Of a stretch of 64,000 nt of DNA, positions 1,104-62,517 are shown piece after piece. Both the position numbers and the translations under genes were made by a program. Below the pieces are notes generated by a model that did not search any database, was not told the origin of the DNA, and saw only the letters and a list, made by a program, of their open reading frames with translations. The stretch's first letter is position 1; every line of letters starts with the position of its first letter. The stretch comes from Phyllobates terribilis (lineage: Eukaryota): the NCBI RefSeq assembly GCF_046119375.1, contig NW_027362762.1, forward strand, positions 683,798,001-683,862,000, in the 5' to 3' direction.

Positions 1104-2733
1104 CAGTACAGACCAAAAGTTTGGACACACCTTCCCATTTAAAGATTTTTCTGTATTTTCATTACTATGAAAATTGTACATTCACACTGAAGGCATCAAA
1201 ACTATGAATTAACACATGTGGAATTATATACTTAACAAAAAAGTGTGAAACAACTGAAAATATGTCTTATATTCTAGGTTCTTCAAAGTAGCCACCTTTT
1301 GCTTTGATTACTGCTTTGCACACTCTTGGCATTCTCTTGATGAGCTTCAAGTGGTAGTCACCGGAAATGGTCTTCCAATAATCTTGAAGGAGTTCCCTGA
1401 GATGCTTAGCACTTGTTGGCCCTTTTGCCTTCATTCTGCGGTCCAGCTCACCCCAAACCATCTCGATTGGGTTCAGGTCTGGTGACTGTGGAGGCCAGGT
1501 CATCTGGCGTAGCACCCCATCACTCTCCTTCTTGCTCAAATAGCCCTTACACAGCCTGGAGGTGTGTTTGGGGTCATTGTTCTGTTGAAAAATAAATGAT
1601 GGTCCAACTAAACGCAAACCAGATGGAATAGCATGCCGCTGCAAGATGCTGTGGTAGCCATGCTGGTTTAATATGCCTTCAATTTTGAATAAATCCCCAA
1701 CAGTGTCACCAGCAAAGCACCCCCACACCATCACACCTCCTCCTCCATGCTTCACGGTGGGAACCAGGCATGTAGAGTCCATCCTTTCACCTTTTCTGCG
1801 TCGCACAAAGACATGGTGGTTGGAACCAAAGATCTCAAATTTGGACTCATCAGACCAAAGCACAGATTTCCACTGGTCTAATGTCCATTCCTTGTGTTCT
1901 TTAGCCCAAACAAGTCTCTTCTGCTTGTTGCCTGTCCTTAGCAGTGGTTTCCTAGCAGCTATTTTACCATGAAGGACTGCTGCACAAAGTCTCCTCTTAA
2001 CAGTTGTTGTAGAGATGTGTCTGCTGCTAGAACTCTGTGTGGCATTGACCTGGTCTCTAATCTGAGCTGCTGTTAACCTGCGATTTCTGAGTCTGGTGAC
2101 TCGGATAAACTTATCCTCAGAATCAGAGGTGACTTTTGGTCTTCCTTTCCTGGGGCGGTCCTCATGTGAGCTAGTTTCTTTGTAGCGCTTGATGGTTTTT
2201 GCAACTGCACTTGGGGACACTTTCAAAGTTTTCCCAATTTTTCGGACTGACTGACCTTAATTTCTTAAAGTAATGATGGCCACTCGTTTTTCTTTACTTA
2301 GCTGCTTTTTTCTTGCCATAATACAAATTCTAACAGTCTATTCAGTAGTTCTATCAGCTGCGTATCCACATGACTTCTGCACAACACAACTGATGGTCCC
2401 AGCCCAATTTATAAGGCAAGAAATCCCACTTATTAAACCTGACAGGGCACACCTGTGAAGTGAAAATCATTTCTGGTCACTACCTCTTGAAGCTCATCAA
2501 GAGAATGCCAAGAGTCTGCAAAGCAGTCATCAAAGCTAAAGGTGGCTACTTTGAAGAACTTAGAATATAAGACATATTTTCAGTTGTTTCACACTTTTTT
2601 GTTAAGTATATAATTCCACATGTGTTAATTCATAGTTTTGATGCCTTCAGTGTGAATGTACAATTTTCATAGTAATGAAAATACAGAAAAACCTTTAAAT
2701 GAGAAGGTGTGTCCAAACTTTTGGTCTGTACTC
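1104..2733 (-). mobile_element. Tc1-like transposon, DD38E (Intruder/IT-type)
   Basis: TA-flanked. ~268-bp inverted repeats (1104-1371 and 2466-2733) beginning CAGTACAGACCAAAAGTTTGG. Internal transposase. Confidence 0.95.
1267..2319 (-). pseudogene. Tc1 transposase (350 codons) with a TAA at codon 21 and a D>N change at the second catalytic Asp
   Basis: MARKKQLSKE start at 2319, stop at 2257-2259. Motifs GRPK, WSDESKF, FQQNNDPKH and SPDLNPIE, with 38 residues between the D position and E. Confidence 0.92.
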
Positions 2734-8743: not shown

Positions 8744-10394
8744 CAGTTATATGAAAAAGTTTGGGCACCCCTATTAATCTTAAGCTTAATGTTTTATAAA
8801 AATTAGTGTTTTTGCAACAGCTATTTCAGTTTGATATATGTAATAACTGTTGGACACAGTAATGTTTCTGCCTTGAAATGAGGTTTATTGTACTAACAGA
8901 AAATGTACAATCTGCATTCAAACAAAATTTGACAGGTGCATAAGTATGGGCACCCTTATCATTTTCTTGTTTTAAATACTCCTACCTACTTTTTACTGAC
9001 TTACTAAAGCACTTTTTTTTGGTTTTGTAACCTCATTGAGCTTTGAACTTCATAGCCAGGTGTATGCAATCATGAGAAAAGCTACTTAAAGTGGCCACTT
9101 GCAAGTTGTTCTCCTGTTTGAATCTCCTCTGAAGAGTGGCATCATGGGCTCCTCAAAACAACTGTCAAATGATCTGAAAACAAAGATTATTCAACATAGT
9201 TGTTCAGGGGAAGGATACAAAAAGCTGTCTCAGAGATTTAACCTGTCAGTTTCCACTGTGAGGAACATAGTAAGGAAATGGAAGAACACAGGGACAGTTC
9301 TTGTTAAGGCCAGAAGTGGCAGGCCAAGAAAAACATCAGGAAGGCAGAGAAGAAGAATGGTGAGATCAGTCAAGGACAATCCTCAGACCACCTCCAGAGA
9401 GCTGCAGCATCAACTTGCTGCAGATGGTGTCACTGTGCATCGGTCAACTATACAACGCACTTTGCACAAGGAGAAGCTGTATGGGAGAGTGATGCGAAAG
9501 AAGCCGTTTCTGCAAGCACGCCACAAACAGAGTCGGCTGAGGTATGCAAAAGCTCATTTGGAGAAGCCAATTTCATTTTGGAAGAAGGTCCTGTGGACTG
9601 ATGAAACCAAGATTGAGTTGTTTGGTCATACAAAAAGGCGTTATGCATGGCGGCAAAAAAACACAGCATTCCAAGAAAAACACTTGCTACCCACAGTAAA
9701 ATTTGGTGGAGGTTCCATCATGCTTTGGGGCTGTGTGGCCAATGTCGGCACCGGGAATCTTGTTAAAGCTGAGAGACGCATGGATTCCACTCAGTATCAG
9801 CAGATTCTTGACAATAATGTTCAAGAATCAGTGACAACGTTGAAGTTACGCAGGGGATGGATCTTTCAGCGAGACAATGATCCAAAACACCGCTCCAAAT
9901 CTACTCAGGCATTCATGCAGAGGAACAATTACAATGTTCTGGAATGGCCATCCCAGTCCCCAGACCTGAATATCATTGAACATCTGTGGGATCATTTGAA
10001 GAGGGCTGTCCATGCTCGGCGACCATCAAACTTAACTGAACTGGAATTGTTTTGTAAAGAGGAATGGTCAAAAACACCTTCATCCAGGATCCAGGAACTC
10101 ATTAAAAGCTACAGGAAGCGACTAGAGGCTGTTATTTTTGCAAAAGGAGGATCTACTAAATATTAATGTCACTTTTCTGGTGAGGTGCCCATACTTATGC
10201 ACCTGTCAAATTTTGTTTGAATGCAGATTGCACATTTTCTGTTAGTACAATAAACCTCATTTCAAGGCAGAAACATTACTGTGTCCAACAGTTATTACAT
10301 ATATCAAACTGAAATAGCTGTTGCAAAAACACCAATTTTTATAAAACATTAAGCTTAAGATTAATAGGGGTGCCCAAACTTTTTCATATAACTG
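8744..10394 (+). mobile_element. Tc1-like IR/DR transposon, structurally intact
   Basis: TA TSD. 211-bp TIRs (8744-8954 and 10184-10394) with two mismatches seen, and a (T/A)TGGGCACC direct repeat at both ends of each TIR. Confidence 0.97.
9144..10166 (+). CDS. Tc1 DD34E transposase, 340 aa, uninterrupted
   Basis: MGSSKQLS start. Motifs SGRPRK, WTDETK, MLWGC, QRDNDPKH and SPDLNIIE (34 spacing), ending GGSTKY*. The ORF track start at 9099 is an upstream non-ATG codon. Confidence 0.93.
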   Translation: MGSSKQLSNDLKTKIIQHSCSGEGYKKLSQRFNLSVSTVRNIVRKWKNTGTVLVKARSGRPRKTSGRQRRRMVRSVKDNPQTTSRELQHQLAADGVTVHRSTIQRTLHKEKLYGRVMRKKPFLQARHKQSRLRYAKAHLEKPISFWKKVLWTDETKIELFGHTKRRYAWRQKNTAFQEKHLLPTVKFGGGSIMLWGCVANVGTGNLVKAERRMDSTQYQQILDNNVQESVTTLKLRRGWIFQRDNDPKHRSKSTQAFMQRNNYNVLEWPSQSPDLNIIEHLWDHLKRAVHARRPSNLTELELFCKEEWSKTPSSRIQELIKSYRKRLEAVIFAKGGSTKY

Positions 10395-19676: not shown

Positions 19677-21577
19677 TAGTGTTGAGCCACCCCCGTAGTG
19701 TTCGGGTTCGGTTGGGTTCGTCGAACACCGTGATGTTCGTGGAACTGTTCGTCGAACACCTTAGAACACCATCGAACACCGTCGAACACCGTTAAAACCA
19801 ATGGCAGACAAACAAAAACACATAGAAACACATAGAAAACACCTTCAAAGGTGTCCAAAAGCTGACAAACTGCTCAGAAGACACTCTCTTTAAAAAAGCC
19901 GGCCGGCAATTCAGCAGCGGCATACACCGGTACCCGACAATTTAGACAAGACGGAATAGAGCATCACACATAGATTAGATAGATAGAAACATGTCAGTCA
20001 AATATATAAGAAGTACAGTGACAGTGTTGCTTACTGTACTTGTCATTTAGTGTTAAAGTATTTATTTAAAAAAATAATAGTGTTTTCATGCACCGTCTCT
20101 TTAAAAAAGCCGGCCGGCAATTCAGCATCGGTACCCAACAATTTATAACAGAAAGAATAGAGCATCACACATAGATTAGATAGATAGAAACATGTCAGTC
20201 ACATATATAAGAAGTACAGTGAGAGTGTTCATTACTGTACTTGTCATTTTGTGTTAAAATAAAGGATTTATTAAAAAAAAAATTGGCGTGGGGTTCCCCG
20301 TAATTTTAGTCTCTAGCGGAGGTTAAGCAGGCAGCTGGGGCAGATGTTTGAAGCCTGGGAAGGGGTTAATACCCACGGAGCTTCCCAGGCTACTAATATC
20401 AGCCCCCAGCTGAATACCTAGCCTTTACTAGCTATTAAAATGGGGGACCCCCAAAAAGATGACATGGGGTCCCCCCTATTTTAATAGCTAGCAAAGGCTA
20501 GGCAGACAGCTGGGGGCTGATATTAATAGTCCAGGAAGGGTGCCATGAATATTGGCCCCCTCCCAGGCTAGAAACACCAGCCGTCAGCCGCCCCAGAAAT
20601 GGCGCATCCGTAGGATGCGCCAATTCTGGCACTTAGCCTCGCTCTTCCCACTGCCCTGTAGCGGTGGCAGTGGGGTAATAGGGCTGGAGTTGATGTCAGC
20701 TTATAATGCCAGCTGACATCAAGCCCAGGTTAGTAATGGAGAGGCGTCTATAAGACACCCCCTTTACTAACCCCATAGTCAAAGTTAAAAAAAAACACAA
20801 ACACCCAGAATAAAGTCCTTTAATTGAAATAAACACACAATTCTTTATTGTTCTAAATTAAACCATACTTACCGTCACGCCCATTCCAGCTGAAGCCAAC
20901 GATCTCCTGCAATAAAAGTAAAATAATAAAGCAACATCATCCTTACCTTTCCATGGTTCCCACGACAGCTTCAGCTCTGCTACATTCACATGACAGGCTG
21001 GAGCGCAGCAGAACGCTGCCATCCAGCTTGCCATGCGGCAGACACTGAGAAGGGCAGGCATGCTTGCGCTCCTCAGTAGTGTTGAGCCACCCCCGTAGTG
21101 TTCGAGTTCGGTTCGGTCCGTCGAACACCCGTGTGTTCGCCGAACTGTTCGTCGAACTGTTCGTCGAACACCTTCGAACACCGTTAAAACCAATGGCAGG
21201 CAAACAAAAACACATAGAAACACATAGAAAACACCTTCAAAGGTGTCCAAAAGCTGACAAACTGCTCAGAAGACACAACTAACACATGGAAAAGTGACAA
21301 GTACATATAGTCATGCGAAAAGAAAAGAGGTGGAGGAGTAAAAGGAGGGGGAGACACAGATATAGGCATGTCATGCCCTTCTAAAATCCAAAAAGTGAGA
21401 AGCCGAGACGGCCAGTCCGCTCCTGCCCGTGCCACCTCCGTGTCGCCGGGTTTGTGCCAGAGCCGCGGTGAACCCTGACGGCCAGCCCCCCTCTCCCAAT
21501 ACTGGTGCCTGTCCGCTGGTGGGTCGAGAGAGCCCCCCTGTGGTGGAGGCAGCTCTAAGCTTTTTAATTTAAATTGT

Positions 21578-21848
21578 CCCTCTAATTTGAATGAATACAC
21601 TTTAAATCCATTTACAAGGATCTATTGGAGGGCAAGTCTCATGCCAGCAGCCGCGTAATTCCAGCTCCAGTAGCGTCCACTAAAGCTGCTGCAGTTAAAA
21701 AGCTTTTATAAGGATCGAGCTCGGCTGTCCACCGCAAGGCATCCTAGTGCCAGTCCCAGCCCCTATGCCTTGGGGTGCCTCCTGATGCTCTTCACTAAGT
21801 ATCCCGTGGTCCCGAAGCATTTCCTTTGAAAAAATTAAGTGTCCAAAC
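21578..21848 (+). pseudogene. 18S rRNA gene fragment (~270 bp, 530-loop region into V4) inside the hAT element
   Basis: TGGAGGGCAAGTC..TGCCAGCAGCCGCGTAATTCCAGCTCC..GCTGCAGTTAAAAAGCT..CCCGAAGC..TTTGAAAAAATTA is colinear with vertebrate 18S as I recall it. Confidence 0.93.
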
Positions 21849-21959: not shown

Positions 21960-23792
21960 TACTCTCGTTGGATGCTGAGAAAGCATTCCATAGAGTCTCC
22001 TGGCACGCCATATATGATTCTCTTAAAAAGCTTGGGGTAGGGGTCTAGGGGACCCTTTTATAGCCAAAATCACGGCCCTGTATCACAATACGTCACCTAG
22101 GCTGAAGATAAATGGAACTGTAGCACCGAGGGCTCGGTTGCTACAGACGTATTGCACCTCACCCAGAGGTGTGATATCTCACTCTCAGATAAGGATGGAG
22201 TGTGGATCAGGACCCGACACCTGCATGCATTACACCACATTGCCGTGGGGCAGGGCGACCAATATGCCCCTGAGATGGGCACGACAGTCCCTGTCCCTGG
22301 CTGGAGTGGGGGGAGGGAACACTGAGGAAGGGGAACCCTGCAGTGCAGGAGCAGGGAGGAAGCAGTTCCTGGGTGCATTGAGAAGGGAGTATAAAAGGTG
22401 GGCACCATCTTAGTTCAGTGCAGAGAAGTCTGAGCAGAAGTGGCAGGGAGCAGGGGCTCTGCATGAGCTCTGCTCCGGAGGCGGGCCTAGTAACAGAGGC
22501 CCAGGCCTGCAAGAGGGAGAAGGAAGGAAGAGGAGCGGAGAAGGCTCCAGGAACGAGGAATGAAGGGATCCCAGGGGTGCGGACGGGCGAGTCGCCACCG
22601 CATGCCCGAATCCACCTGCGTGGAGGGGTCAGGCCAAAGGGGGAGACCGGTCCCCGAACTAGTGGAGGCAGGAAACGACCCTCAGCTAGAAACCGGAGGC
22701 TCTGACATTTTATGTGGCGCAGCCCCTTGCTCCACCCGCTAGGAAGGCACCACATAGGGTCAGGGAAACTGGCGCCAAGTTTACCAAGAGGAGGCCCGAG
22801 GCAGCCGGACAGAAGTGTTGGTAAGAAAGGCCAGACAAAGGACACACAAAGGGGGTCCTGTGAAGCGCTCCAAAGTTATCTGGGAGTTGTCTGAGCCCCT
22901 CACCTGGTGAGCACAGTACGACGTGGGCAGCCGTTACCTGCAGACGTGGTCTGGATAATAAGAACTGTGAGTAAAGGCCCTGAACTGCATCACTGACTCC
23001 GTGTCGTTACTGCTGCTGCCCTGCACCATCACCCCCATCCTCCGCATACACTGCCCTGAGGCTATACTCCTCCCGTGGGGAGTTATGCTACGCTCTGCTG
23101 CACCCACAACACCAGCCTTAGCGGTCTGCCCTGTAGCGGCGGTTCACTCTGACCGCAATCCACGGGTGGCGTAGTCGGACATTTAAACATCAAAACCACA
23201 TAAATAGTTCCGCCACTGGTTTGACCGCCCTGAGCCACGGAACCGGATCGCCGCCACGAAGACTACAACCACCAGCATCCACCAAAAAGGGTCCGGCTCC
23301 GGGTGTCCCAAGGCCCAGGGGGTGCGTCAGAACATTTTCATCACCTTTCACAATCACCAATGGGACAAGGCAGGGATGTCCTCTGTCCCCTCTCTTATAC
23401 ATCCTAGTGACGGAGCACCTGCTCTCATCAATTCGCCATAACCCCAATATTAGGTGGATTGAGGTGGGAGGCACCGAGTACAAGTGCTCTCTATTTGCTG
23501 ATGATGTCCTAGTATATATCACTCAATCACATATATCCATCCCTGCTGTTATGGCTGAAATAGATCACTTTGTTACATGGTAAAATTTTAAAATCAATGC
23601 AGCGAAGTCTGAGGCCCTCGATGTCTCCCTCCCTAAATCCATATAGGATTCCATCCAGTCCAACTTTCCCTTTGCCTGGCCCTCACAGGGTATCAAATAC
23701 TTAGGAATTCCTATTCATAGAGACCTCTCCCATCTATGTTATCTTAATTTTGGGCCCTTTATTGAACAATTCCATACAGACCACGGTTGGCA
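21960..23792 (+). pseudogene. Internal L1-clade ORF2 reverse transcriptase fragment split by a solo LTR
   Basis: SLDAEKAF, GTRQGCPLSPLL, LFADD and IKYLGI motifs. The reading continues across the LTR (LKING|TFSSPF). Confidence 0.9.
22119..23329 (+). mobile_element. Gypsy-type solo LTR (1211 bp)
   Basis: TG...CA ends, 4-bp TSD GAAC (22115-22118 and 23330-23333), TATAAAA at ~22390, and 3' part homologous to the LTR at 46485. Confidence 0.92.
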
Positions 23793-26700
23793 AGTTGGAA
23801 CTGTGAGATTCACTACGTGCACCACTGGTATTTTGTGGAAAAGCACATGTAAGATTCTGCAACAGTCTCTGCTGATACTCCTGCATGCGTGCATCCCTTT
23901 CTATGGCAGGAATAATTTCTGCAAATTTACTTTTGTACCGGGGATCTAACAGTGTGGCAACCCAGTAGTCAGGATTATTTCTAATTCTCACAATTCGAGG
24001 GTCATGTTGCAGGTAGTGCAGCAAGAAGGCACTCATGTGTGTTGCGCATCCAGGAGCACCAAGTCCCTGTTGTGTTGGTGGCGAGGTAACAATCATGCTT
24101 CCTTCCTCTGTCCTCTCCCCCCAACCTCGCACAACAGAAATGTGATCAAGGTCTCCTTCATCTGATGAGTCTTCCATCAGTTCGTCCTCCACTTCTTCCT
24201 GGGCTCCTGCACCTTCCTCACTAGTTTGGCTGCTACCATGCGCCCTGGTAAAATCATCTCCCCCACCCTCACATGCCTGCCGCCCTGGTGCTGCCGACCG
24301 TCTGGACCTTGCAGATGTTAGCCCTTCCACATACAACTCCTCCTCCTCTACTTCCTCCACCTCCTCTTGTGCCACCACCTGACTCCGAATTCTGTTTAAC
24401 ATGTGCTCCAGCATGTAAATCACCGGAATAGTCATGCTGATAATGGCATCGTCAGCACTAAACATCTTCGTCGCCATTTCAAAACTGTGCAGAAGGGTGC
24501 ATAGGTCCCTGATCTGAGACCACTCCTCCAGCGTGATTTGCCCCACCTCTGAATCTCGTTGGCCCAGGCTATACGTCAGAACGTATTGCACCAGGGCTTG
24601 TCGGTGCTGCCACAGTCGCTGCAACATGTGCAGAGTTGAATTCCACCGGGTAGGCACATCGCATTTTAGCCGGTGAAGTGGCAGGCCCAACAACTTCTGT
24701 AGAGATGTAAGTCGCTGAGCTGCGGGATGCGAACGGCGGAAGTGAGCACACAGCGACCGTGCTCTCTGCAGAAGGCCATCTAGTCTGGGATAGTGGGCTA
24801 AAAATTGCTGGACAACCAGGTTCAACACGTGAGCCATACAAGGCACGTGTGTGACATTGCCCCGGCGAAGGGCCGCACCCAGGTTTGCAGCATTGTCGCA
24901 CACGGCCTTCCCTGGTTTCAGGTCCAGTGGAGACAACCATTCATGAAATTGGTTCTCCAGAGCTGACCACAACTCCTCAGCTGTGTGACTCACATTTCCC
25001 AGACATTTCAATGTAAAAACCGCCTGATGACGTTGAGCCCTACTGCCAGCATAGTAAGGAGGTGTGCAGGATCCCTTCTGCGCAGTTAGAAAGCTTGTGG
25101 CATGACCAGACAGGCTTTGGGTACAGGTGGAAGACCGAGAGGAGGTTGAGGAGGCAGAAGCAGTGGAGGAAAAATGACATAAAGAGGATTGACGCACAAC
25201 TCGTGGGGACGGCAAGACTTGGACAGCAGCCCCTTGTCCTGCTGTCACCATAGTTACCCAGTGCCCAGTCAGCGACATGTAACGCCCCTGTCCATGCCTA
25301 CTCGTCCAAGTGTCTGTGGTGAAATGCACCCTGTCACACACAGAGTTTCTCAAAGAAGCGGTGATGTTGTGTGCGACATGCTGGTGGAGCGCAGGCACAC
25401 CTTTCTTTGAGAAGTAGTGCCGACTGGGCATCTGGTACTGGGGCACTGCGACGGACATAAGGTCTCGAAAATCCTCTGTGTCCACCAGGCGGAAAGGCAG
25501 CATTTCTGTAGCCAAGAGCTTGCAGATGGTGAAATTCAACCTCTTAGCTTTCTCATGGCTAGGAGGAAATGGTCTTTTACTTGTCCACATCTGAGGGACC
25601 GAGGGCTGGCTATTGTGCTTAGACGGGGTTGATAAGGGTGTCCCCGGCAAACTGCCGGTCTGTGAGGAAGATGCAGGCGGACATGTTAGGTTGCCTTGAT
25701 CCAAAGGTGGTGCTATCGATGTCGGACAGCGCTCAAGACCAGCTGGTGTTACCACCTCCAAAGAAAATGATGACCTGCCAATCACTCTGGCTGTTGCGGG
25801 TAAAGAGGTGGCAGGTCTGCGCCCCAAAACAGGTGTGACTGCTGTCCCCCCAGTCACAGAGGATGAAGAGGCCGCGGATGCACAAGATATGGCAGACGGT
25901 GGTTGGCCCGGCCGGCTAGACCGCATTGTAGCACACTGAGCTTCCCACTGCAACTTATGCTTCATGTCCATGTGCCGGTTCATGCATGAAGTACTCAAAC
26001 TATGTATTTTTTGGCCTCTACTTAGCTTTTGCTGACAAATGTTACAGATAACACGAGTTGGGTCATCTTTATCGATCTGAAAAAATGCCCAGGCTATGCA
26101 AGGCTTAGCACCCATGCGACCTGAAGAGCCACCACGTCTTGTGGTGAGAGGCAGAGTTGTGTTTGAGGATGCAGTTGTTGACGTGCTTCCAGTACTACGT
26201 CTCTGTCCAGGAAGGCGCAACCTGACCTCGTCGTCACTAGCATCTTCCTCCACCTCCTCTGCTGACCTCATCTCTTGGCTGACTGTGGGTTGACAGTAAG
26301 TGGGATCTCCGACCTCATCATCATCACCCTGTGCGTTATCACACCCGTCGTCCTCAGAGCCAACCTGTTCCTGCCCTGACAAAAAACTAAAGTTGTCGCT
26401 CCAATCAGGTATTTGAGTCTTATCATCGTCTTCCTCATTGTCTCCACCAACAGGAGTTACAGTTTGGGAATGAGGGTCTACATTATGGTCAGAACCTTCT
26501 GCGTCTGGTCCTGGATCCGACTCATAAAGATTCTGGGCATCAGTGCAGATCATTTCCTCGTCTGGATTCACAGAAGCGCTGGAGTCGACCTCTGATTCCC
26601 AGGATATAGTATGAGTAAACAGCTCTGCAGACTCAACCATCTGTTCTACCTCATACTCAGACGGGCAGCTGGAGATTTGGGAGCTGTGAGGAAGCAAGTG

Positions 26701-26870
26701 CGATTTGGGTGACACCTTTGAGGACTGGAGTATTTGTGATGTTGAAGTTGATGTGGATGAGAGCCCACTTAAAGGAGCACTTGATATCCGTTGAAGCACC
26801 TGCTGTTTTTGTGCCGCATCTGGAATTTGTAGCGATTAGCGTGGCCGTAAGAAAGGGATCTTATCACATT
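23793..26870 (-). pseudogene. hAT transposase with BED zinc finger; in-frame stop at 26836-26838 and truncated C-terminus
   Basis: WAFF..CNIC..RHMDMKH, TTDTWTS, CDNAAN, CMAHVLNL, CDVPTRWNST and ATLLDPRYK. The region carrying the catalytic Glu and dimerisation domain is absent. The last ~20 aa of the ORF-track product are antisense L1. Confidence 0.92.
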
Positions 26871-31552: not shown

Positions 31553-33180
31553 CAGTACAGACCAAAAGTTTGGACACACCTTCTCATTTAAAGATTTTTC
31601 TGTATTTTCATGACTATGAAAATTGTACATTCACACTGAAGGCATCAAAACTATGAATTAACACATGTGGAATTATATACTTAACAATAAAGTGTGAAAC
31701 AACTGAAAATATGTCTTATATTCTGGGTTCTTCAAAGTAGCCACCTTTTGCTTTGATGACGGCTTTGCACACTCTTGGCATTCTCTTGATGAGCTTCAAG
31801 AGGTAATCACCGGAAATGGTCTTCCAACAATCTTGAAGGAGTTCCCAGAGATGCTTAGCACTTGTTGGCCCTTTTGTCTACACTCTGCGGTCCAGCTCAC
31901 CCCAAACCATCTCGATTGGGTTCAGGTCTGGTGACTGGAGGCCAGGTCATCTGGCGTAGCACCCCATCACTCTCCCTCTTGGTCAAATAGCCCTTACACA
32001 GCCTGGAGGTATGTTTGGGGTCATTGTCCTGTTGAAATATAAATGATGGTCCAACTAAACGCAAACCGGATGGAATAGCATGCCGCTGCAAGATGCTGTG
32101 GTAGCCATGCTGATTCAGTATGCCTTCAATTTTGAATAAATCCCCAACAGTGTCACCAGCAAAGCACCCCCACACCATCACACCTTCTCCTCCATGCTTC
32201 ACAGTGGGAACCAGGCATGTAGAGTCCATCCGTTCACCTTTTCTGCGTCGCACAAAGACACGGTGGTTGGAACCAAAGATCTCAAATTTGGACTCATCAG
32301 ACCAAAGCACAGATTTCCACTGGTCTAATGTCCATTTCTTGTGTTCTTTAGCCCAAACAAGTCTCTTCTGCTTGTTGCCTGTCCTTAGCAGTGGTTTCCT
32401 AGCAGCTATTTTACCATGAAGGCCTGCTGCACAAAGTCTCCTCTTAACAGTTGTTGAAGAGATGTGTCTGCTGCTAGAACTCTGTGTGGCATTGACCTGG
32501 TCTCTAATCTGAGCTGCTGTTAACCTGCGATTTCTGAGGCTGGTGACTCGGATAATCTTATCCTCAGAAGCAAAGGTGACTCTTGGTCTTCCTTTCCTGG
32601 GGCGGTCCTCATGTGAGCCAGTTTCTTTGTAGCGATTGATGGTTTTTGCAACTGCACTTAGGGACACTTTCAAAGTTTTCCCAATTTTTTGGACTGACTG
32701 ACCTTCATTTTTTAAAGTAATGATGGCCACTTGTTTTTCTTTACTTAACTGCTTTTTTCTTGCCATAATACAAATTTTAACAGCCTATTCAGTAGGACTA
32801 TCAGCTGTGTATCCACCAGAGTTCTGCACAATACAACTGATGGTCCCAACCCAATTTATAAGGCAAGAAATCCCACTTATTAAACCTAACAGGGCACACC
32901 TGTGAAGTGAAAACCATTTCCGGTGACTACCTTTTGAAGCTCATCAAGAGAATGCCAAGAGTGTGCAAAGCAGTCATCAAAGCAAAAGGTGGCCACTTTG
33001 AAGAACCTAGAATATAAGACATATTTTCAGTTATTTCACACTTTTTTGTTAAGTATATAATTCCACATGTGTTAATTCATAGTTTTGATGCCTTCAATGT
33101 GAATGTACAATTTTCATAGTCATGAAAATACAGAAAAATCTTTAAATGAGAAGGTGTGTCCAAACTTTTGGTCTGTACTG
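31553..33180 (-). mobile_element. Second DD38E Tc1-like copy
   Basis: TA-CAGTACAGACC...GGTCTGTACTG-TA; same family as 1104-2733. Confidence 0.95.
31716..32766 (-). pseudogene. DD38E transposase with a 2-bp deletion near 31935
   Basis: Open from MARKKQ through FQQDNDPKH; the frame shifts after TWPP. Confidence 0.92.
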
Positions 33181-41760: not shown

Positions 41761-43231
41761 TATATAGGGTTGAAACTAATTGTATGGTTCATTTTCTCCT
41801 ATTATCCCTTTTGAAAATTAAAAACTTGGGGCTAAAGCAACATTTTAGTGGAAATAGTAGTAATTTTCCATTGACTCGGCCCAATCTTATACAATCCTGT
41901 GAATCGACTGAGGATTAAAACTGTTCACTACACCCCTAGATGAATTCCTCAAGAGGTGTAGTTCCCCAAGTGTGGTAATTTGTGAGGATTTCTGCTGTTT
42001 TGGAATGCCAGGGGCTCTTCAAATGTGACATGGCATTCAAAATGTATTTCAGCCAAAATTGCGCATCAGAATTCAATTGGTGCTCCTTCCCTTCCGAGCC
42101 CTGCCGTGTACCCAAACAGTAGTTTTCCCCCAGATATGGAGTATTTGTATACTCAGGAGAAATTGTACAACAAACTGTATGTCCACTTTTCTTATGTTAC
42201 CCTTGTGAAAATTAATCATTTGGGGATAAAGCAACATTTTTGTGGGAATAATGTGATTTTTTATTTTCACTGCTCAGCTTTATAAAATTCTATGAAGCAC
42301 CTGCTGGTTCAAGGTGCTCATCTCATGTCTAGATGTGTGCCTTGAGAGGTGTAGTTTTTAAAATGGGGTCACTTATGGGAGGTGGTTTCCAGTGTTTAGG
42401 CACACCAGAGGCTCTGAAAAGTGACATGACATCCACTATCTATTCCAGACAATTTATAAAATTCTGTGAAGCACCTGGTGGTTCAAGGTGCTCACTACAT
42501 GCCTAGATGTGTGCCTTGAGGGGTGTAGTTTTCAAAATGGGGTCACTTATGGGGGGGGTTTCCAGTGTTTAGGCACATCAGAGGCTCTGAAAAGTGACAT
42601 GGCGTCTCCTATAAATTCCAGCCAATTTTGCGCGCCAAAAGTCAAATGGTGCTCCTTTGCAAACAAACAATAGTTTTCCATCACATATGGTATATCGGAG
42701 TACTCAGGAGAAATTGTACAACAAATAGTATAATCCATTTTCTTCTGTTACCCTTGTGAAAATTAATAATTTAGGGCTAAAGCAACCCTTTTTGTAGAAA
42801 TAATGTGATTTTTTATTTTCATGTCTCAACGTTATAAATGTCTGTGAAGCACCTGCAGGTTCAAAGTGCTAACCACACCTCTAGATAAGTTCTTTGAGGA
42901 GTGTAGTTTCCAAAATGGGGGGTTTCCACTGTTTGGCACATCAGGCGCTCTGCAAATGCGACATGACATGCACTATCTATTCCAGACAATTTTACCCTCC
43001 AAAGTTAAAGGGTGCTCCTTCCCTTCTGAGCCCTGCTGTGTACCCAAACAGTAGTTTTCCACCACATATGGGGTATCGGTGTACTAAGGAGAAACTGCAC
43101 AACAAATTGTATCATACATTTTCTCCTGTTACCCTTTTGAAAATGCAAAATTTGAGGCTAAATCAATATTTTGGTGGGAAAAAGTAAAATCTTCATTTTT
43201 TTTCTACCACATTGTTTTAATTCTGGGGAAG

Positions 43232-43622
43232 TATATAACAAACTGTGAGGAAAATAATGGCCTGGGAGGGGTATATTGATAATGTATTTACAAAGTGGGG
43301 AGAACCCCAAAAAAGACCCCTCTCTATCAAGCCATAAAACTAAGCTTTTATTTCATATTTGATTAAAAACGCCTAGGGGTATATAAAAAATGTCCCTAAT
43401 CTGCTTTTAGTATTTTAAAGTGGTATTCGTATTTCTACACACACTTAGCGGCACCCGGGTGCCTTCATTCGAACGTCAGAATAGGACAAACTGTACTCAT
43501 AGCACAAGTCTCCCCAACATGTTTCACCGCATGTGCGGTGTCATCAGGGGATGGGACACTGGCACATCTTTATGGTTTGTTAGAGAGGGGTCTCTTTTGG
43601 GGTTCTCCCCATTTTGTAAATA
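43232..43622 (-). mobile_element. 391-bp hammerhead-bearing insertion (PLE-derived or retrozyme-like)
   Basis: 13-bp direct repeat AATTCTGGGGAAG (43219-43231 and 43623-43635), and a ~54-bp internal inverted repeat (43285-43337 and 43569-43622). Confidence 0.8.
43511..43551 (-). ncRNA. Type I minimal hammerhead ribozyme with an intact core
   Basis: UCCC-CUGAUGA-C-ACCGC(ACAU)GCGGU-GAAA-CAUG-UU-GGGGA. Predicted GUU cleavage between 43516 and 43515. Confidence 0.8.
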
Positions 43623-44206
43623 AATTCTGGGGAAGCCCCTAAAGGGTTAATAAACTTCTTCAATGTGGTTTTGAGCACTTTAAGGGGTGTAATTTTTAAA
43701 ATAATGTCACTTTTAGGTATTTTCTGTCACACTGGCCTTTCAAAGTCACTTCAAAAGGGATGTGGTCCCTAAGAAAATTGGTTTTGTTCATTTTGTTGGA
43801 AAATTGAGAAATTGCTGATAAACTTTTAACCCTTCTAACTTCCTAACAAAAAACTATTATGTTTCAAAAATTATGCTGATGTGAAGTAGACATGTGGTAA
43901 ATATTATTTATTAACTATTTTATGTGGTATAACTATCTGGTTTAAGGGCATAAAAATTTAAAGTTGGAAAATTGCTAAATTTTCAAATTTGTTTGTTAAA
44001 TGTTCAATATTTTCATAAATAAACTCAAATCACATCAATGTAAAATTACCACTAATATGAATTACAATATGTCACCTAAAAACTGGGACAGCACTGGGAT
44101 ATGTTGGAGCATTCCAGAGTTATTACCTCATAAAGTGACCTTGGACAGAAGTGAAAAAATTGGCTTGGTCAGGAAGGTGAAAACGGGCTCGGCGTGAAGG
44201 GGTTAA

Positions 44207-47730: not shown

Positions 47731-47956
47731 GAAGACGCCGCGCGGGAAGAAGAGGGGCGTGGACTCCGAAAGCGCGCGAGAACTGAAGCTCCGCCTCACG
47801 TCCGGACGTTGCGTAAGGTCCTGGAAGGAGCCCAGCAGACGCTGACGTCACAGGAGCGCGACGGAAGGTCCTCAACCCTGACGATCCACTGCGGAACCGC
47901 GGCCTACGGAAGAGGATCATCGCAAGGTAGGCCACGGTCCACTAGGGGGGAGGAGG

Positions 47957-48937
47957 ATGTCGGATACGGAGGAGAGCTTCACTGCCACAGCCACCGCCAG
48001 CGCCGCCGCTGCTGCGGTCATGCCTTTCACCATGCCCTATATCCCGGGGGCAGCCTGGCTACCCCAGTACTCAGGGGAGTCACATACCCTGAATGACTTT
48101 AGAGAAAAGCTGGATAGCCTCTTCCAGGTGTACCCCCTCACAGAAGAGCAAAAAGTGAGCATCCTGGTGGCCCAACTAACCGGGGCAGCCCAAAGGGAGG
48201 TAAAGTCCTGGCCACCTGGGAGGAGGACTGTCGCAGGGATATTAACCCGGCTGAAGGACACCTTTGATACCCGCACCTCAGCCGAGATTAAGCTTAGATT
48301 CTACGGGTGCAAACAGCGAGCACATGAGAATATAAGGGACTATGCACTAAACCTACAAGAGGCCCTGAGAGCCATTAAGCAGACCGACCCTGACGGCGTG
48401 AGAAACGAGGACAGGCTGTTGACCGAACAATTTATAGAGGGACTATATTGCAATGCCCACCGAACCCAGTTGCGGGCAATGGCCTTACAGGATCCTCATC
48501 TGGACTTTGCACAGTTCAAGGACAGAGCCATCCGGGTGCTCCGAGAACCGGCACCGGGTGGCGTGGTGACCCACAGGCGCCCTACTACCGCTTACCACCA
48601 GGAGGCGGCGCCCTTGTCGGCAGGGCCTGTGGGAGCTGACGCGCAGGCTTTGAACAATGACCCGGCTCCAGACCTGTACCATCAGGTCCAAGAGCTAGCT
48701 AAAAGCGTTGCTGCGCTAACCCGAACTGTGCAGTCTTTACAGGTTTCTGCTCCAGGGAAGATCCAGCTGGCATCCGGACCGGAGGACATCCCGTGGCGTC
48801 GACCAAGGAGGACCCCACCGGCCAGAGGAAGACCCAGCGACCGATACAACGAGGACGGACAACCCATCTGCCGCCGCTGCAATCAACCCGGACATATGGC
48901 AAGGTACTGTCCTTTAAACTGGCACAACCTGGGGTAG
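47957..48937 (+). CDS. gag: Gag, 326 aa, with a CCHC zinc knuckle
   Basis: Open ORF containing CRRCNQPGHMARYC. Confidence 0.93.
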   Translation: MSDTEESFTATATASAAAAAVMPFTMPYIPGAAWLPQYSGESHTLNDFREKLDSLFQVYPLTEEQKVSILVAQLTGAAQREVKSWPPGRRTVAGILTRLKDTFDTRTSAEIKLRFYGCKQRAHENIRDYALNLQEALRAIKQTDPDGVRNEDRLLTEQFIEGLYCNAHRTQLRAMALQDPHLDFAQFKDRAIRVLREPAPGGVVTHRRPTTAYHQEAAPLSAGPVGADAQALNNDPAPDLYHQVQELAKSVAALTRTVQSLQVSAPGKIQLASGPEDIPWRRPRRTPPARGRPSDRYNEDGQPICRRCNQPGHMARYCPLNWHNLG

Positions 48938-48971
48938 AGGGCCAACCCCCAGGAATAAGATCACCAGGCCC
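48913..48971 (+). promoter_or_regulatory. Predicted -1 programmed ribosomal frameshift signal
   Basis: T TTA AAC in gag phase, an 8-nt spacer, stem CCTGGGG/CCCCAGG, and a second helix GGGCC/GGCCC. Confidence 0.8.
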
Positions 48972-51900
48972 ATCAAACTGGCGTGACAAATACGTGGGAG
49001 GACGTCCAGTCTTGCCTGTGGTACTGGATGGCATTCCTATGAGTGCCCTACTTGACACCGGGTCACAGGTCACCACCATCCCGTACGTGCTCTTTAAGCA
49101 GTACTGGAATGACTCGGATATAACCCGCTACCCTGACGACGACTTGAGTATCATCGCCAGCAATGGTCAACCCGTGCCACAGATCGGATTCAAAGAGATG
49201 ACCATTAAAGTCGGTAGAGTCGAACTGGCAGCACAGGGACTGATCATTGTAGACATTGACAAGCGCGAGAGTCACCCAAAGATAACTCTAGGAACTAATG
49301 TGATTGAAAATTGTCTTGCAGAGGTGATTTTCATTTTACAGCAGGTTGCCAAGAACGCCAGCTCCGGCCAGCAGCGAGTGCTCCAAAAAGAGATCCGGGC
49401 ACTGATGCGGCGGCAACAGGTGGAACTCTCCGGTGGTGAGATTGGAAGCGTGAGAATGTGTGACCCTTTCCCTATTGCCATGCCCCCAAAAAGTGAAATG
49501 ATGATTTGGTGCCGGGCAGCTATTGGTCTAAGAGGTAGAGACTACCAAGCAATGGTAGAACCCATCTACTCAGACAGTAGGCCCACCATTTTGACAGCAC
49601 GGGGGGTGGTTGATGTACGCCATGGGAGGGTGCCCGTTCGCATAATAAATATCGGGAAGAGGGAAGTGTACCTGCCCCGGTATGCTACGCTAGCCAAATT
49701 GTATACCATCAATCAGAATTCTGTACAGGCCGTGGAACCCTTGCCTCCATCTCAACCAGAGGAAGGTAACGGCTCTAAGAAACCAATGGAGGACTGGTGT
49801 CAGCAACTACATCTGGGTACTGACTCCACTCCCTCACACCAGAAACAAGGAGTCTATCGGGTGGTTCAAGAGTACGAGAGAGTGTTTAGTAAACACCCGT
49901 TAGACTTCGGGCGAGTAAAAGGGGTAGAACACCACATCCCCACGGGAGACCATCCTCCCATAAAGGAGAGATACCGACCCGTACCCCCTGCACACTACCA
50001 ACACGCCAAGGGGATGCTTAGAGACATGAAGGAGGCTGGAGTAATCAGGGATAGCTGTAGCCCCTGGGCAGCTCCACTAGTCTTGGTTAAAAAGAAAGAC
50101 AACACTATGAGAATGTGTGTAGATTACCGGAAAATCAACCGTATCACACACAAAGATGCGTACCCCTTACCAAGGATAGAGGAGTCTTTGGCTGCTTTAA
50201 AATCTGCTAACTTCTTCTCCACTTTGGATCTCACTAGCGGGTACTGGCAGGTTCCTGTAGCAGAGGCGGACCGGGAGAAGACCGCATTCACCACCCCGAT
50301 GGGACTTAGCGAGTTTACCTGCATGCCGTTCGGACTCTGCAACGCACCAGGAACCTTCCAACGATTGATGGAATGCTGTCTGGGACACCGAAACTTCGAG
50401 ACGGTCCTGTTATACCTGGACAATGTCATCGTCTACTCCAAGACCTACGAGGACCACCTGAAACACCTGGCAGAAGTGTTCGAAGCCCTGGCAAACTACG
50501 GCCTAAAGGTGAAACCCTCCAAGTGTCACCTCCTGAAACCAAAGGTGCAGTACCTGGGACACGTGGTGAGTGCTGACGGAGTGGCTCCCGACCCTGATAA
50601 GATCACCGCAATTAAGGAATGGCCAAGCCCCTCCAGCGTAAAGGAAGTGCGGCAGTTCCTCGGGTTGGTAGGCTACTACCGAAGATTCATTCCCGGTTTC
50701 ACCAAAAAGGCAGCTCCTATGCAGGACCTCCTGATAGGCCAGTCCAGGAAGGCCAAGAACCAGAAGCCGCCCTTCAGATGGGAGAAGCTGGAAGAAGAGT
50801 CCTTCCGCCAGCTGAAGATGGCCCTCACGGGGGATGAAATCCTGGCGTACCCGGATTACAGCCAGCCCTTTATCCTCTACACCGACGCAAGTAACATCGG
50901 GCTAGGAGCCGTACTGTCCCAGATCCAGCAGGGGAAAGAACGGGTAATTGCTTACGCCAGCCGAAAACTGCGACCCACCGAAAGAAACCCTGAGAATTAC
51001 AGCTCATTCAAGCTAGAGTTCCTGGCAGTGGTGTGGGCAGTCACCGAACGCTTTAGGCACTACCTCGCCTCTTCCCGGTTCACCGTGTACACGGATAACA
51101 ACCCGTTGACACATCTGGACACTGCAAGACTCGGTGCCCTGGAGCAGAGATGGATGGCCCGCCTGTCCAACTATGAGTTCACGATCAAATACCGGGCAGG
51201 ACGCTCCAATACCAACGCGGATGCCTTGTCCAGAATGCCAAACCTACCGGACGTAGGGGAAGATCCAGAGGAACTGGAAGAAGTTGAACTCCCCGCGTTC
51301 CACCGTCATGGGACTATCCAGTATTCCCACCGTGTAAGGGGTAAGCAATCTGCTACGTTCAACCCCTTACCTCATTACAACTGGGCGGAAATGCAAGACA
51401 GTGACCCCGCCGTCCGACTGGTGAAGGAGATGCTGACTCAGCCAGATGCCCGCCTTGACCCAGACGCTCCGGAGGAGGCCAAGCAACTGTGGGTTGAGAA
51501 GAGTCGACTGTTCCTTTACAAGGGGAAGTTGTGCCGCAGAATGGTTAACTCCCGGACGCATGAACTGATCTGGCAAGTAGTGGTGCCAAGAAGAGACGCG
51601 GCTATGGTACTGGAGGCATACCACGACGGAGCTGGGCACTTCGGATGGAAGAAGCTGGAGTTCCTGCTGCGCGGGCGGTTCCACTGGGTAGGCATAAGAG
51701 GAACCATCGAGAGGTGGTGCAGAGACTGTGGCCCATGCAACCTAAGAAGGAAGGACCGTGCTAGCCAGAAGACTCCCCTGCAGTCCATCGTCACCAAGCA
51801 GCCGTTGGAACTGGTAGCCTTGGATCATGTAAAACTGACCCCCAGCAGAAGTGGCTACGTCTATGCGTTAACCATCGTGGATCACTACTCCCGGTTTTTG

Positions 51901-53049
51901 GTTGTCGTCCCCGTCAAGGACTTAACGGCTCAAACAGCAGCTAGAGCCTTCCAGCAGCACTTCTGCCGTCCACACGGATACCCAGAGCAGGTGCTGACGG
52001 ACCAGGGACCTGCCTTTGAAGCGGAAGTCTTCCAGGAGTTCTGTACTCTGTATGGCTGCCGGAAGATAAGAACAACACCCTATCATCCGCAAACCAATGG
52101 GCTCTGCGAGAAAATGAACCAGGTGGTGATAGATCTTCTGAAAACATTGCCCCTGGAAGAACGCAATCTGTGGCCTGAGAAACTGCCTGATCTGGTGGAC
52201 CTATACAACCACATCCCGGTAGGTTCTACCAACTGTACCCCGGCTTACCTAATGAGAGCAAGACCTGGTAAGCTTCCTGTTGATCTGGAGATGGGAGTTC
52301 TGACACCTGAGGACACTTCACCAGAAGCAGACTGGGACACAGAAAGGCAGCAGCAGTACCGGAAAGTACAGGAGAGCGTGGAGCGAAGTCTCTGTCAAGC
52401 TAGAGAAAGACAGGAGAAGACTTACAACCAGTGTGCTCCCGCTGTTCCCCTGGTACCTGGAGAGCAGGTCTTGAAGAGGAAGAGACGGCTCCACAAGTTG
52501 GACGACCAGTGGGAGAAGGACCCGTACACCGTACTGCCCTCAAGCCATGAGAACCCGAAAGTCTGCACAATCAGTAAGGATGGAGGAGAAACCACAGCCA
52601 TTGTATCCCGAGATCACCTGAAGAAGTGTCCCGAACAGCTACGGAACCCTGAAGAAGAACAAGAAGACCCTCGACCCGCAGAGGAAAGGGAAGATATGGT
52701 CAGTACTGTGCTCGGAGACTTCCCTCGGTCTTGGACTCAAGTCAATGGCGCTGTTGTGGTACCCGTCCTCACCTTCCTCCAACCAGCATCCCAAGTGCCT
52801 ACGGAGAAACAGGTAGAGCTGGAAGAGCAGCCGGTCCAGGAGGCAGAAGACCCCACACAAGCAGACCAGGAGGATCAACCCTCTGCGTATAGTGAGCCTG
52901 CCGTACCCCTAGTGAGCCAAAGAGCCCGTAGACAGCTGCCCAGTTTACCTTTGACAGCTCCTACACCTGGTAGCTCAGGACCAGTCAGTCAGCTCCGTAG
53001 GTCCACTAGAGCCACTAGAGGCCAGTTGCCCGTACGTTGGAGGATCTAG
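48916..53049 (+). CDS. pol: Pol polyprotein (protease, RT, RNase H, integrase) in the -1 frame relative to gag
   Basis: LLDTGS; PWAAP; YLDN (YxDD altered); TDAS/E/TDNNPL; HHCC; D, D(35)E; GPY/F-like tail; no chromodomain seen. Confidence 0.93.
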   Translation, partial: KLAQPGVEGQPPGIRSPGPSNWRDKYVGGRPVLPVVLDGIPMSALLDTGSQVTTIPYVLFKQYWNDSDITRYPDDDLSIIASNGQPVPQIGFKEMTIKVGRVELAAQGLIIVDIDKRESHPKITLGTNVIENCLAEVIFILQQVAKNASSGQQRVLQKEIRALMRRQQVELSGGEIGSVRMCDPFPIAMPPKSEMMIWCRAAIGLRGRDYQAMVEPIYSDSRPTILTARGVVDVRHGRVPVRIINIGKREVYLPRYATLAKLYTINQNSVQAVEPLPPSQPEEGNGSKKPMEDWCQQLHLGTDSTPSHQKQGVYRVVQEYERVFSKHPLDFGRVKGVEHHIPTGDHPPIKERYRPVPPAHYQHAKGMLRDMKEAGVIRDSCSPWAAPLVLVKKKDNTMRMCVDYRKINRITHKDAYPLPRIEESLAALKSANFFSTLDLTSGYWQVPVAEADREKTAFTTPMGLSEFTCMPFGLCNAPGTFQRLMECCLGHRNFETVLLYLDNVIVYSKTYEDHLKHLAEVFEALANYGLKVKPSKCHLLKPKVQYLGHVVSADGVAPDPDKITAIKEWPSPSSVKEVRQFLGLVGYYRRFIPGFTKKAAPMQDLLIGQSRKAKNQKPPFRWEKLEEESFRQLKMALTGDEILAYPDYSQPFILYTDASNIGLGAVLSQIQQGKERVIAYASRKLRPTERNPENYSSFKLEFLAVVWAVTERFRHYLASSRFTVYTDNNPLTHLDTARLGALEQRWMARLSNYEFTIKYRAGRSNTNADALSRMPNLPDVGEDPEELEEVELPAFHRHGTIQYSHRVRGKQSATFNPLPHYNWAEMQDSDPAVRLVKEMLTQPDARLDPDAPEEAKQLWVEKSRLFLYKGKLCRRMVNSRTHELIWQVVVPRRDAAMVLEAYHDGAGHFGWKKLEFLLRGRFHWVGIRGTIERWCRDCGPCNLRRKDRASQKTPLQSIVTKQPLELVALDHVKLTPSRSGYVYALTIVDHYSRFLVVVPVKDLTAQTAARAFQQHFCRPHGYPEQVLTDQGPAFEAEVFQEFCTLYGCRKIRTTPYHPQTNGLCEKMNQVVIDLLKTLPLEERNLWPEKLPDLVDLYNHIPVGSTNCTPAYLMRARPGKLPVDLEMGVLTPEDTSPEADWDTERQQQYRKVQESVERSLCQARERQEKTYNQCAPAVPLVPGEQVLKRKRRLHKLDDQWEKDPYTVLPSSHENPKVCTISKDGGETTAIVSRDHLKKCPEQLRNPEEEQEDPRPAEEREDMVSTVLGDFPRSWTQVNGAVVVPVLTFLQPASQVPTEKQVELEEQPVQEAEDPTQADQEDQPSAYSEPAVPLVSQRARRQLPSLPLTAPTPGSSGPVSQLRRSTRATRGQLPVRWRI

Positions 53050-61445: not shown

Positions 61446-61976
61446 GCTTTAAAGATGAAATTTTATTATTATAATCAGTGCTGAGCCACCCCCGTAGTGT
61501 TCGAGTTCTGTTCGGTTCGTTGAACACCCATATGTTCGCCAAACTGTTCGTCGAACTGTTCGTCGAACACCTTCGAACACCGTTAAAACCAATGGCAGGC
61601 AAACAAAAACACATAGAAACACATAGAAAACACCTTCAAAGGTGTCCAAAAGCTGACAAACTGCTCAGAAGACATAACTAACACATGGAAAAGTGACAAG
61701 TACATATAGTCATGCGAAAAGAAAAGAGGTGGAGGAGTAAAAGGAGGGGGAGACACAGATATAGGCATGTCATGCCCTTCTAAAACCAAAAAAGTGTGAA
61801 GCCGACACGGCCAGTCCGTTCCTGCCCGTGCGACCTCCGTGTCGCCGGGTTTGTGCCAGAGCCGCGGTGGACCCTGACGGCCAGCCCCCCTCTCCCAATA
61901 CTGGTGCCTGTCCGCTGGTGGGTCGAGCAAGCCCCCCTGTGGTGGAGGCAGGTCTAAGCTTTTTAATTTAAATTGT

Positions 61977-62246
61977 CTCTCTAATTTGAATGAATACACT
62001 TTAAATCCTTTTACAAGGATCTATTGGAGGGCAAGTCTCATGCCAGCAGCCGCGTAATTCCAGCTCCAGTAGCGTCCACTAAAGCTGCTGCAGTTAAAAA
62101 GCTTTTATAAGGATCGAGCTCGGCGGTCCACCGCAAGGCGTCCTACCGCTAGTCCCAGCCCCTATGCCTTGGGGTGCCTCCTGATGCTCTTCACTGAGTA
62201 TCGCGGGGTCCCGAACCATTTCCTTTGAAAAAATTAAGTGTCCAAA
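61977..62246 (+). pseudogene. 18S rRNA fragment, copy 2
   Basis: Same block as 21578-21848. Confidence 0.93.
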
Positions 62247-62517
62247 CTACAGGTGGTGTAGCTTGCTTAACAGCTGGGATAATCCGCTGACTAGCAGACA
62301 CTGCTACTAGGCACAAAGTATTTCCTGGGCTAGATGCAGTTAAAAATTTGTAATTAGATACTCTCGTTGGATGCTGAGAAAGCATTCCATAGAGTCTCCT
62401 GGCACGCCATATATTATTCTCGTAAAAAGCTTGGGGTAGGGGTCTAGGGGACCCTTTTATAGCCAAAATCACGGCCCTGTATCGCAATACGTCACCTAGG
62501 CTGAAGATAAATGGAAC

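Follow-up and report, generated by a model that had tools for sequence, protein, structure and literature searches.

A 391-base hammerhead-bearing insert as a stub copy of the terminal module of a decayed PLE

The anatomy of the stubs that Penelope-like elements (PLEs) leave in genomes has already been described (PMC8557442, PMC3846280, PMC2377424; these papers, like all others cited here, are used in extract). Thousands of hammerhead-bearing PLE remnants are present in amphibian genomes (PMC4209133). Hammerheads with a helix III of a single base pair and a palindromic loop belong to a motif type that cleaves as dimers (PMC7229834, PMC6765202, PMC4209133). An Anolis PLE studied in vitro primes internally, nicks and extends both strands, and uses uncleaved RNA (PMC11167929). 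A CX2-5CxxC Zn-finger-like linker before the endonuclease is found in Neptune and is common to Nematis and Naiad (PMC8557442). For LINE-1 and SVA, an untemplated G at the 5' end has been interpreted as copying of the cap (PMC4859970).

The window, that is, the whole stretch of DNA analysed in this work, comprises 64,000 nucleotides. This window carries an insert of 391 bases, a stub that reproduces the terminal, ribozyme-bearing module (pLTR head and tail) from a decayed PLE. The starts and ends of the insert's sister copies suggest that such stubs reproduce in full the short capped front end of the element's RNA and do not represent a separate small ribozyme element. For the comparison of copies, 73 unique arms were mapped, taking as +1 the A of GCAGCC-ATCTTTG. 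The insert and the repeat that hosts it contain the following features.

41774..44206, no strand: host repeat with internal direct repeats and right end AAGGGGTTAA; extent from copy comparison, left end unmapped
43219..43231, no strand: left copy of the 13-bp TSD, with a single homologue in host-repeat copies lacking the insert
43232..43284, minus strand: PLE tail (about +289 to +341 of the head), the outer 3' end, on the direct arm only
43285..43564, minus strand: direct arm, pLTR head from +6 to +288, mapped against sister copies
43450..43463, no strand: 14-bp palindrome, seen in the sequence and as a hairpin in the fold prediction
43512..43551, minus strand: type I hammerhead, from its sequence and its conservation within and across families
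43551-43548/43515-43512, minus strand: hammerhead stem I
43547-43541, minus strand: hammerhead CUGAUGA
43540, minus strand: hammerhead bulged C
43539-43526, minus strand: hammerhead stem II
43525-43522, minus strand: hammerhead GAAA
43522-43517, minus strand: hammerhead palindromic ACAUGU
43565..43568, no strand: 4-nt inter-arm junction, GATG on the minus strand, either filler or a mutated G+ATC start
43569..43622, plus strand: inverted tail-less arm (+235 to +288), mirroring 43285-43338; the inner 3' end
43623..43635, no strand: right copy of the 13-bp TSD

The direct repeat at 43219-43231 and 43623-43635, which the preliminary description had taken as a 13-bp TSD, is a true one, because 14 of 14 other host-repeat copies are free of the hammerhead and continue uninterrupted across the site, most of them with one recognisable homologue of the 13-mer. 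Another locus (L018), with a single 13-mer homologue and no insert, also supports the empty site. The host repeat is very abundant (8924 candidates) and is presumably a TTAA-type non-autonomous DNA transposon. TSDs were found automatically for 20 of the 73 arms, and 11 of those measure 13-14 bp.

The insert had also been described as having inverted ends. The inverted repeat itself is real (43281-43338/43569-43626, 58 nt with 91% identity, or 54 nt excluding the overlap into the TSD), but the ends are not symmetric, since its left arm lies 53 nt inside the insert. Similarly, the GGGTGCCGC motif is present, not as a standalone motif but as one half of the palindrome at 43450-43463. A MITE or another DNA transposon with terminal inverted repeats was considered and rejected, given this internal left arm and a mirror arm that is absent or of locus-specific length, with no fixed terminal inverted repeats. 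The length of the mirror arm ranges from about 11 to more than 270 nt between copies, a variation that resembles that of the known inverted pLTRs of PLEs. The window insert, with a direct arm from +6 to +341 and an inverted arm from +235 to +288, is typical of its family, and its tail end is common to other copies, its tail class being that of 39 of the 73 mapped arms. The strong fold of the whole insert (z = -9.26) reflects the presence of the inverted arm and nothing more. In this copy the +1 position, the putative transcription start, has been lost or mutated, and the copy begins at +6 after a 4-nt linker instead of at G+1. It is most likely inert.

The window also carries two degenerate 18S rRNA fragments (21557-21676 and 61935-62286), probably carried by one repeat family because they share the same departures from consensus. 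Three Tc1-type transposase frames lie at 1267-2256 (minus), 9090-10166 (plus) and 31897-32784 (minus), and an open frame of 1033 aa with a BED zinc finger, which we take to be hAT-like, at 23734-26835 (minus). An LTR-type element at 47882-53049 (plus) combines a PNMA and zinc-knuckle gag region with an open RT-RNase H-integrase frame of 1448 aa.

The insert is one of many copies, as the preliminary description expected: a copy-number search gave 849 candidates in its own 10.6 Gb genome, and the 40 scored showed 82-94% identity apart from the self match. An exact 21-mer of the family occurs 54 times in the genome, from which, at about 4% divergence, the family is roughly estimated at 130 arms. 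The head of the family is covered by four contig sets, presumed to be RNA, from one study; such assembled contigs carry no information on start, strand or level.

Seven of the first 30 loci extend upstream of the unit. On the hammerhead strand, the upstream order is an ORF end, a UTR of about 570 nt, a 109-bp minisatellite, a promoter-like region of about 230 nt with several ATTGG boxes and a TATA-like run, and then the head. The direct-arm head of the window is continuous with promoter, minisatellite, UTR and ORF end in two loci, L054 and L031. In L054, an RT-thumb, a CxxCxxCxxC linker and a GIY-YIG-like sequence precede the UTR, the minisatellite, the promoter-like region and the head on the hammerhead strand, and L208 shows the RT motifs DKG and IDD plus an inverted arm. 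The ORF pieces of L054, L031 and L208 are broken but collinear, and all lie upstream of the same head. Their Pfam GIY-YIG scores fall under the cut-off (E 0.021 and 0.0015), and the pieces are 37% identical to an intact ORF of 843 aa from another family, which itself gives a weak RVT_1 hit; a PDB sequence search with the N-terminal piece of L208 gave no match. Two further observations concern these loci. The 3-kb copy of L031 (684-3773), which includes the ORF end, has a long inverted arm carrying a second hammerhead in mirror orientation, and in L019 and L029 Tc1-like elements are inserted in the TATATA run just upstream of +1 (to the right of the main match).

Judged from these joined sequences, the 333-nt unit of the insert is the 3' terminal module of an ORF-bearing PLE. 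The earlier idea of a separate small non-autonomous retrozyme-like element is not supported, although the insert does have the size and type of a retrozyme (a type I hammerhead in a non-coding unit of 170-400 nt). The broader idea, namely that PLE machinery made this retro-insertion, which has flanking TSDs and a type I hammerhead of the dimer kind, is supported by the TSD, the hammerhead and the PLE-joined copies. The features of an endonuclease-positive PLE are present, namely RT and a GIY-YIG-like end in one ORF, a hammerhead in the pLTR, an adjacent inverted copy, a tail at one end and a TSD. The Zn-finger-like linker seen between RT and endonuclease, as in Neptune, points to a Neptune type. 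No intact ORF was found in the family, the five closest ORF matches (80-100%) having open frames of at most 318 aa among the best candidates scored. Likewise, none of the loci examined, where the best candidates were scored, holds a partial-tandem full-length copy (pLTR-ORF-pLTR) of the insert's family. The PLE family of the insert looks extinct.

The hammerhead, which lies on the ORF strand inside the pLTR, has the complete core previously reported, the minus strand at 43551-43512 being UCCC-CUGAUGA-C-ACCGC(ACAU)GCGGU-GAAA-CAUG-UU-GGGG. The cut is predicted at the GUU triplet between 43516 and 43515, also in agreement with the preliminary description. Since matches to the core motif alone are not above chance in the window (7 against 3.47 expected, with 8 of 100 shuffles reaching 7) and Rfam searches at the gathering threshold and at E<=10 gave no hammerhead match, the case for the ribozyme rests on conservation across PLE families. 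Across 11 aligned copies, drawn from the insert's family and other PLE families of its genome, ten of the eleven core positions are invariant; A9, the eleventh, likewise shows the same base in every row. Loop II varies among the same copies while the core remains constant, and in two of the 11 the helix III palindrome ACAUGU is replaced by another palindrome, ACGCGU. Within the family the hammerhead decays neutrally (18% change at CpG against 4% elsewhere in 60 copies), and its core is intact in the window and in 47 of the 60 copies. The closing pair of stem II is A-U in the window and G.U in 45 of these 60, so that the A of the window is probably due to CpG decay. With regard to folding, the ACAUGU self-duplex has a computed energy of -4.6 kcal/mol. 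The minimum-energy folds contain no active hammerhead: in the monomer (z -2.82) core bases are mispaired, and in the two-copy fold stem II strands are paired instead. The ribozyme probably cleaves only as a dimer or with the help of a protein.

The 5' ends were analysed in a sample that is blind to them, because its members were chosen by a 21-mer downstream of the ribozyme. Among 54 such arms, 24 end at -1..+10, 11 extend past -25, 3 end at -24..-2, 10 at +11..+52 and 6 at +53..+59. After duplicated loci were merged (n=49), the corresponding counts are 23, 10, 3, 10 and 3. The counts retain arms misplaced by internal deletions or mismatches, at least three in the blind sample (L165, L183, L189) and two in the pooled one (L007, L172). 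The hot spot at +1 lies about 22 nt before the hammerhead core and about 30 nt after the TATA-like box. Most aligned families have GCCAT at the +1 site, presumably a YY1-like motif.

The start is also marked by an additional base. In genome-wide exact matches, obtained with a pattern that is neutral among non-templated bases, the base preceding +1 is G in 16 of 20 (two matches being one duplicated locus); matches with a templated base before +1 number 21, of which 15 continue upstream. Among pooled arms, the extra G is present in 17 of the 20 that end at +1 but in 3 of the 25 that end at +2..+11 (Fisher p 9e-7). For instance, L093 has a lone G between the TSD and +1 (TSD-G-ATCTTTG). This G may be attributed to cap copying by the RT. 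It could also reflect a terminal-transferase bias that acts at the 5' end of any RNA, or else microhomology, and in L004 and L096 there is a microhomology able to supply it.

A few arms begin instead at the predicted cut: L198-L201, the second arm of L106 and, in family B (see below), L263 and L292. The first of these (C11:344.5-345.2 Mb) is one insertion in four copies generated by segmental duplication, whose direct arm begins exactly at the predicted cut, and it is the sole event exactly at the cut in the blind sample of the insert's family. In that sample, 6 of 54 5' ends fall near the cut, or 3 of 49 once duplicates are merged, with only one exactly at +55 and further ends scattered around it over +46..+59. 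The cut-site starts are a genomic hint of self-cleavage.

The 3' ends of the 73 arms fall into two classes about 50 nt apart, 39 near +340 (tail) and 25 near +290 (short), with 9 others. The 27 two-armed insertions comprise 15 tail/short, 4 short/tail, 1 tail/tail and no short/short combinations, and 7 unresolved; hence 19 of the 20 resolved ones have one end of each class. The initial search enriched tailed arms, a bias that does not set the class of the partner arm. Three loci (L086, L092, L158) show short fold-back junctions formed from the first 20-40 nt of the head, which resemble the palindromic junctions reported in rotifer PLEs.

Two related families were compared. From family B, a younger one with 106 matches, the first 60 were retrieved, and 59 of them could be used. 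Among these 59, the 5' end lies past 216 nt in 31 and at -119 in one, in 13 the start is 15-20 nt ahead of the core, in 12 the end falls between -45 and -15, none ends between -53 and -118, and two start exactly at the predicted cut, one of them with a 13-bp TSD and a 4-nt filler and the other without a visible TSD. Family B thus repeats the start cluster at the same offset from the hammerhead in a different sequence. An untemplated G is not evident in these arms; the hot spot of family B contains a templated G, to which the extra-G test is blind. In family C (L231), the 5' repeat reaches beyond the two 3' end sites in the direction of the ORF. The inverted arm of L231 exceeds the direct end in length and closes on a 14-bp TSD, and the structure as a whole gives genomic support for internal priming. 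L231, together with L229 and L232, belongs to a related PLE family with open frames of 839-867 aa, and the 99% identity between the repeats of L231 marks this family as young. The hammerhead of these three loci has a long stem II, an ACGCGU palindrome and a GUA triplet.

These results can be combined in a model that we consider likely, in which the stub was produced by an endonuclease-positive, Neptune-type PLE, whose staggered nicks prime internally on a capped and mostly uncleaved transcript. A putative Pol II promoter inside the 3' repeat of the element would drive a transcript starting at +1, about 22 nt before the hammerhead core, capped and continuing into the downstream ORF. An RT-endonuclease would nick both target strands 13-14 nt apart, the stagger recorded by the TSDs, and each nick would prime cDNA at an internal RNA site, one near +290 and one near +340, where the two classes of ends are observed. 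Since no copy of the insert's family with a head running on into an ORF was found among the loci examined (best candidates scored), internal priming in this family is deduced from family C and the literature. With sites so near the RNA 5' end, the outer cDNA would need only about 340 nt to reach the presumed cap, often adding a C opposite to it, which the copies retain as the extra G. The inner cDNA would stop early and the two cDNAs would be joined head to head, giving a direct arm with tail, an inverted arm without tail and a TSD, as in the window insert. The window copy and most others include sequence upstream of the cut, so their template was not cut by the hammerhead; a few copies may derive from cleaved RNA.

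The main rival is a plain 5'-truncated PLE insertion, in which the cDNA copied from the 3' repeat of a long transcript stops early and the hot spot marks a hairpin or pause near +1, not an RNA start. Truncation at the 5' end is a known rule for PLEs (PMC8557442; bioRxiv 2026), 30 of the 54 arms end outside the hot spot, and a potential 7-bp hairpin, itself a conceivable cause of breaks, has +1 in its loop. However, one would expect a pause at the 3' foot of this hairpin (+12) and not in its loop, and truncation leaves unexplained the confinement of the extra G to +1 (17/20 versus 3/25), the TATA-like spacing and the equal hammerhead offset of family B in a different sequence, so that we regard this explanation as unlikely. 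A self-propagating non-autonomous PLE (SINE-like or a retrozyme monomer), that is, a short G-ATCTTTG master with an internal promoter copied in trans, seems more improbable still. Short copies do exceed long ones (43 versus 17), Penelope has an internal promoter (PMC2377424), and pLTR-related retrozyme monomers have been described in Xenopus (bioRxiv 10.64898/2026.07.22.740005). Against it, none of 36 sites is diagnostic for short or long copies (the best, at a CpG, has p 0.012), their pairwise distances are equal (0.101, 0.105, 0.104), and their labels are unclustered on a star-like tree of low power (16 changes versus 15.0 when shuffled); moreover, 5' ends are scattered over -1..+10 and mirror arms differ at every locus.

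The strict form of the retrozyme idea, a tandem non-LTR retrozyme moving through hammerhead-processed circular RNA, is the least credible of all and can be given hardly any weight. The unit of about 335 nt and the hammerhead type fit amphibian retrozymes (PMC7229834), and some support may be seen in the few arms that begin at the predicted cut, but in longer copies a PLE ORF is attached to the unit, and the ends of the unit are fixed and not circularly permuted. The search for tandem arrays that the preliminary description called for gave no head-to-tail units in the mapped loci and, among the 54 exact matches, no same-strand neighbours within 1 kb. A separate candidate, an LTR retrozyme (type III hammerhead, LTRs and a 4-bp TSD), was rejected on account of the type I motif, the 13-bp TSD and the lack of an LTR pair.

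Returning to internal priming on a capped transcript, the stubs might be a readout of transposition itself. One RT-endonuclease complex would prime twice, about 50 nt apart, within the 5' leader of one and the same capped transcript (the number of templates being a supposition of the model), copy to the cap and join the cDNAs, and the rare cut-site stubs would come from ribozyme-cleaved RNA, so that a dimer-type PLE hammerhead would cut in vivo. This extension is tentative and may well prove wrong. If true, the start site, the priming sites and the cleavage rate of any PLE family could be mapped through its stub ends, using nothing but DNA. As an element the insert is ordinary, and its worth lies in the copy set, which bears on how PLEs form inverted repeats and tails and on the role of the hammerhead. 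The fixed start with its extra G, the use of one 3' end from each class and the rare starts at the cut yield direct predictions for the PLE system established in vitro, as well as for young families of this genome. In the literature covered, no report was found of a fixed start with an extra G or of paired 3' ends in the stubs of PLEs; the comparison did not extend to subscription papers, Repbase or Dfam, and the family may already have a name.

With respect to known systems, endonuclease-positive PLE units (Craig et al. 2021, PMC8557442; Arkhipova et al. 2013, PMC3846280) share with the insert's family the 5'-shortened copy, the adjacent inverted copy, the tail at one end, the TSD, the pLTR hammerhead, and TATA and Inr-like motifs in the pLTR, and Neptune and Nematis also share the Zn-finger linker before the endonuclease. 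The family differs in its tail of about 50 nt, against the 30-40 reported in PLEs, and in its TSD of 13-14 bp, against 8-10 in a rotifer PLE; the extracts of these two papers do not mention for PLEs the fixed 5' start with an extra G or the strict pairing of 3' ends. The Anolis Poseidon element PAc (Frangieh et al. 2024, PMC11167929) is similar in its two internal RT start sites bracketing the tail, in the nicking and extension of both target strands, in the uncleaved RNA as main template and in a hammerhead near the transcript 5' end. However, PAc belongs to the Poseidon clade and its sites lie within the ORF, whereas the element of the insert is of Neptune type with a non-coding head, and no RNA-seq reads ending at the cut were found for PAc, whereas a few copies start there in the insert's genome.

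Animal non-LTR retrozymes (Cervera and de la Pena 2020, PMC7229834; Li et al. 2026, bioRxiv 10.64898/2026.07.22.740005) resemble the insert in the unit of about 330 nt, the pLTR kinship, the dispersed monomers and the type I hammerhead with a one-pair helix III and a palindromic loop. They are defined by head-to-tail repeats and circular RNA, and the insert, for which no such head-to-tail units were seen, differs from them in its inverted arm, its tail, its TSD and its being part of an ORF-bearing element. These results suggest that among the dispersed "retrozyme monomers" there are by-products of PLE transposition that do not form a replicon themselves. Finally, full-length LINE-1 and SVA insertions also show an extra G at the transcript start, interpreted as reverse transcription of the cap (PMC4859970), but there it marks full-length poly(A)-primed copies, whereas here it marks internally primed stubs of 340 nt.
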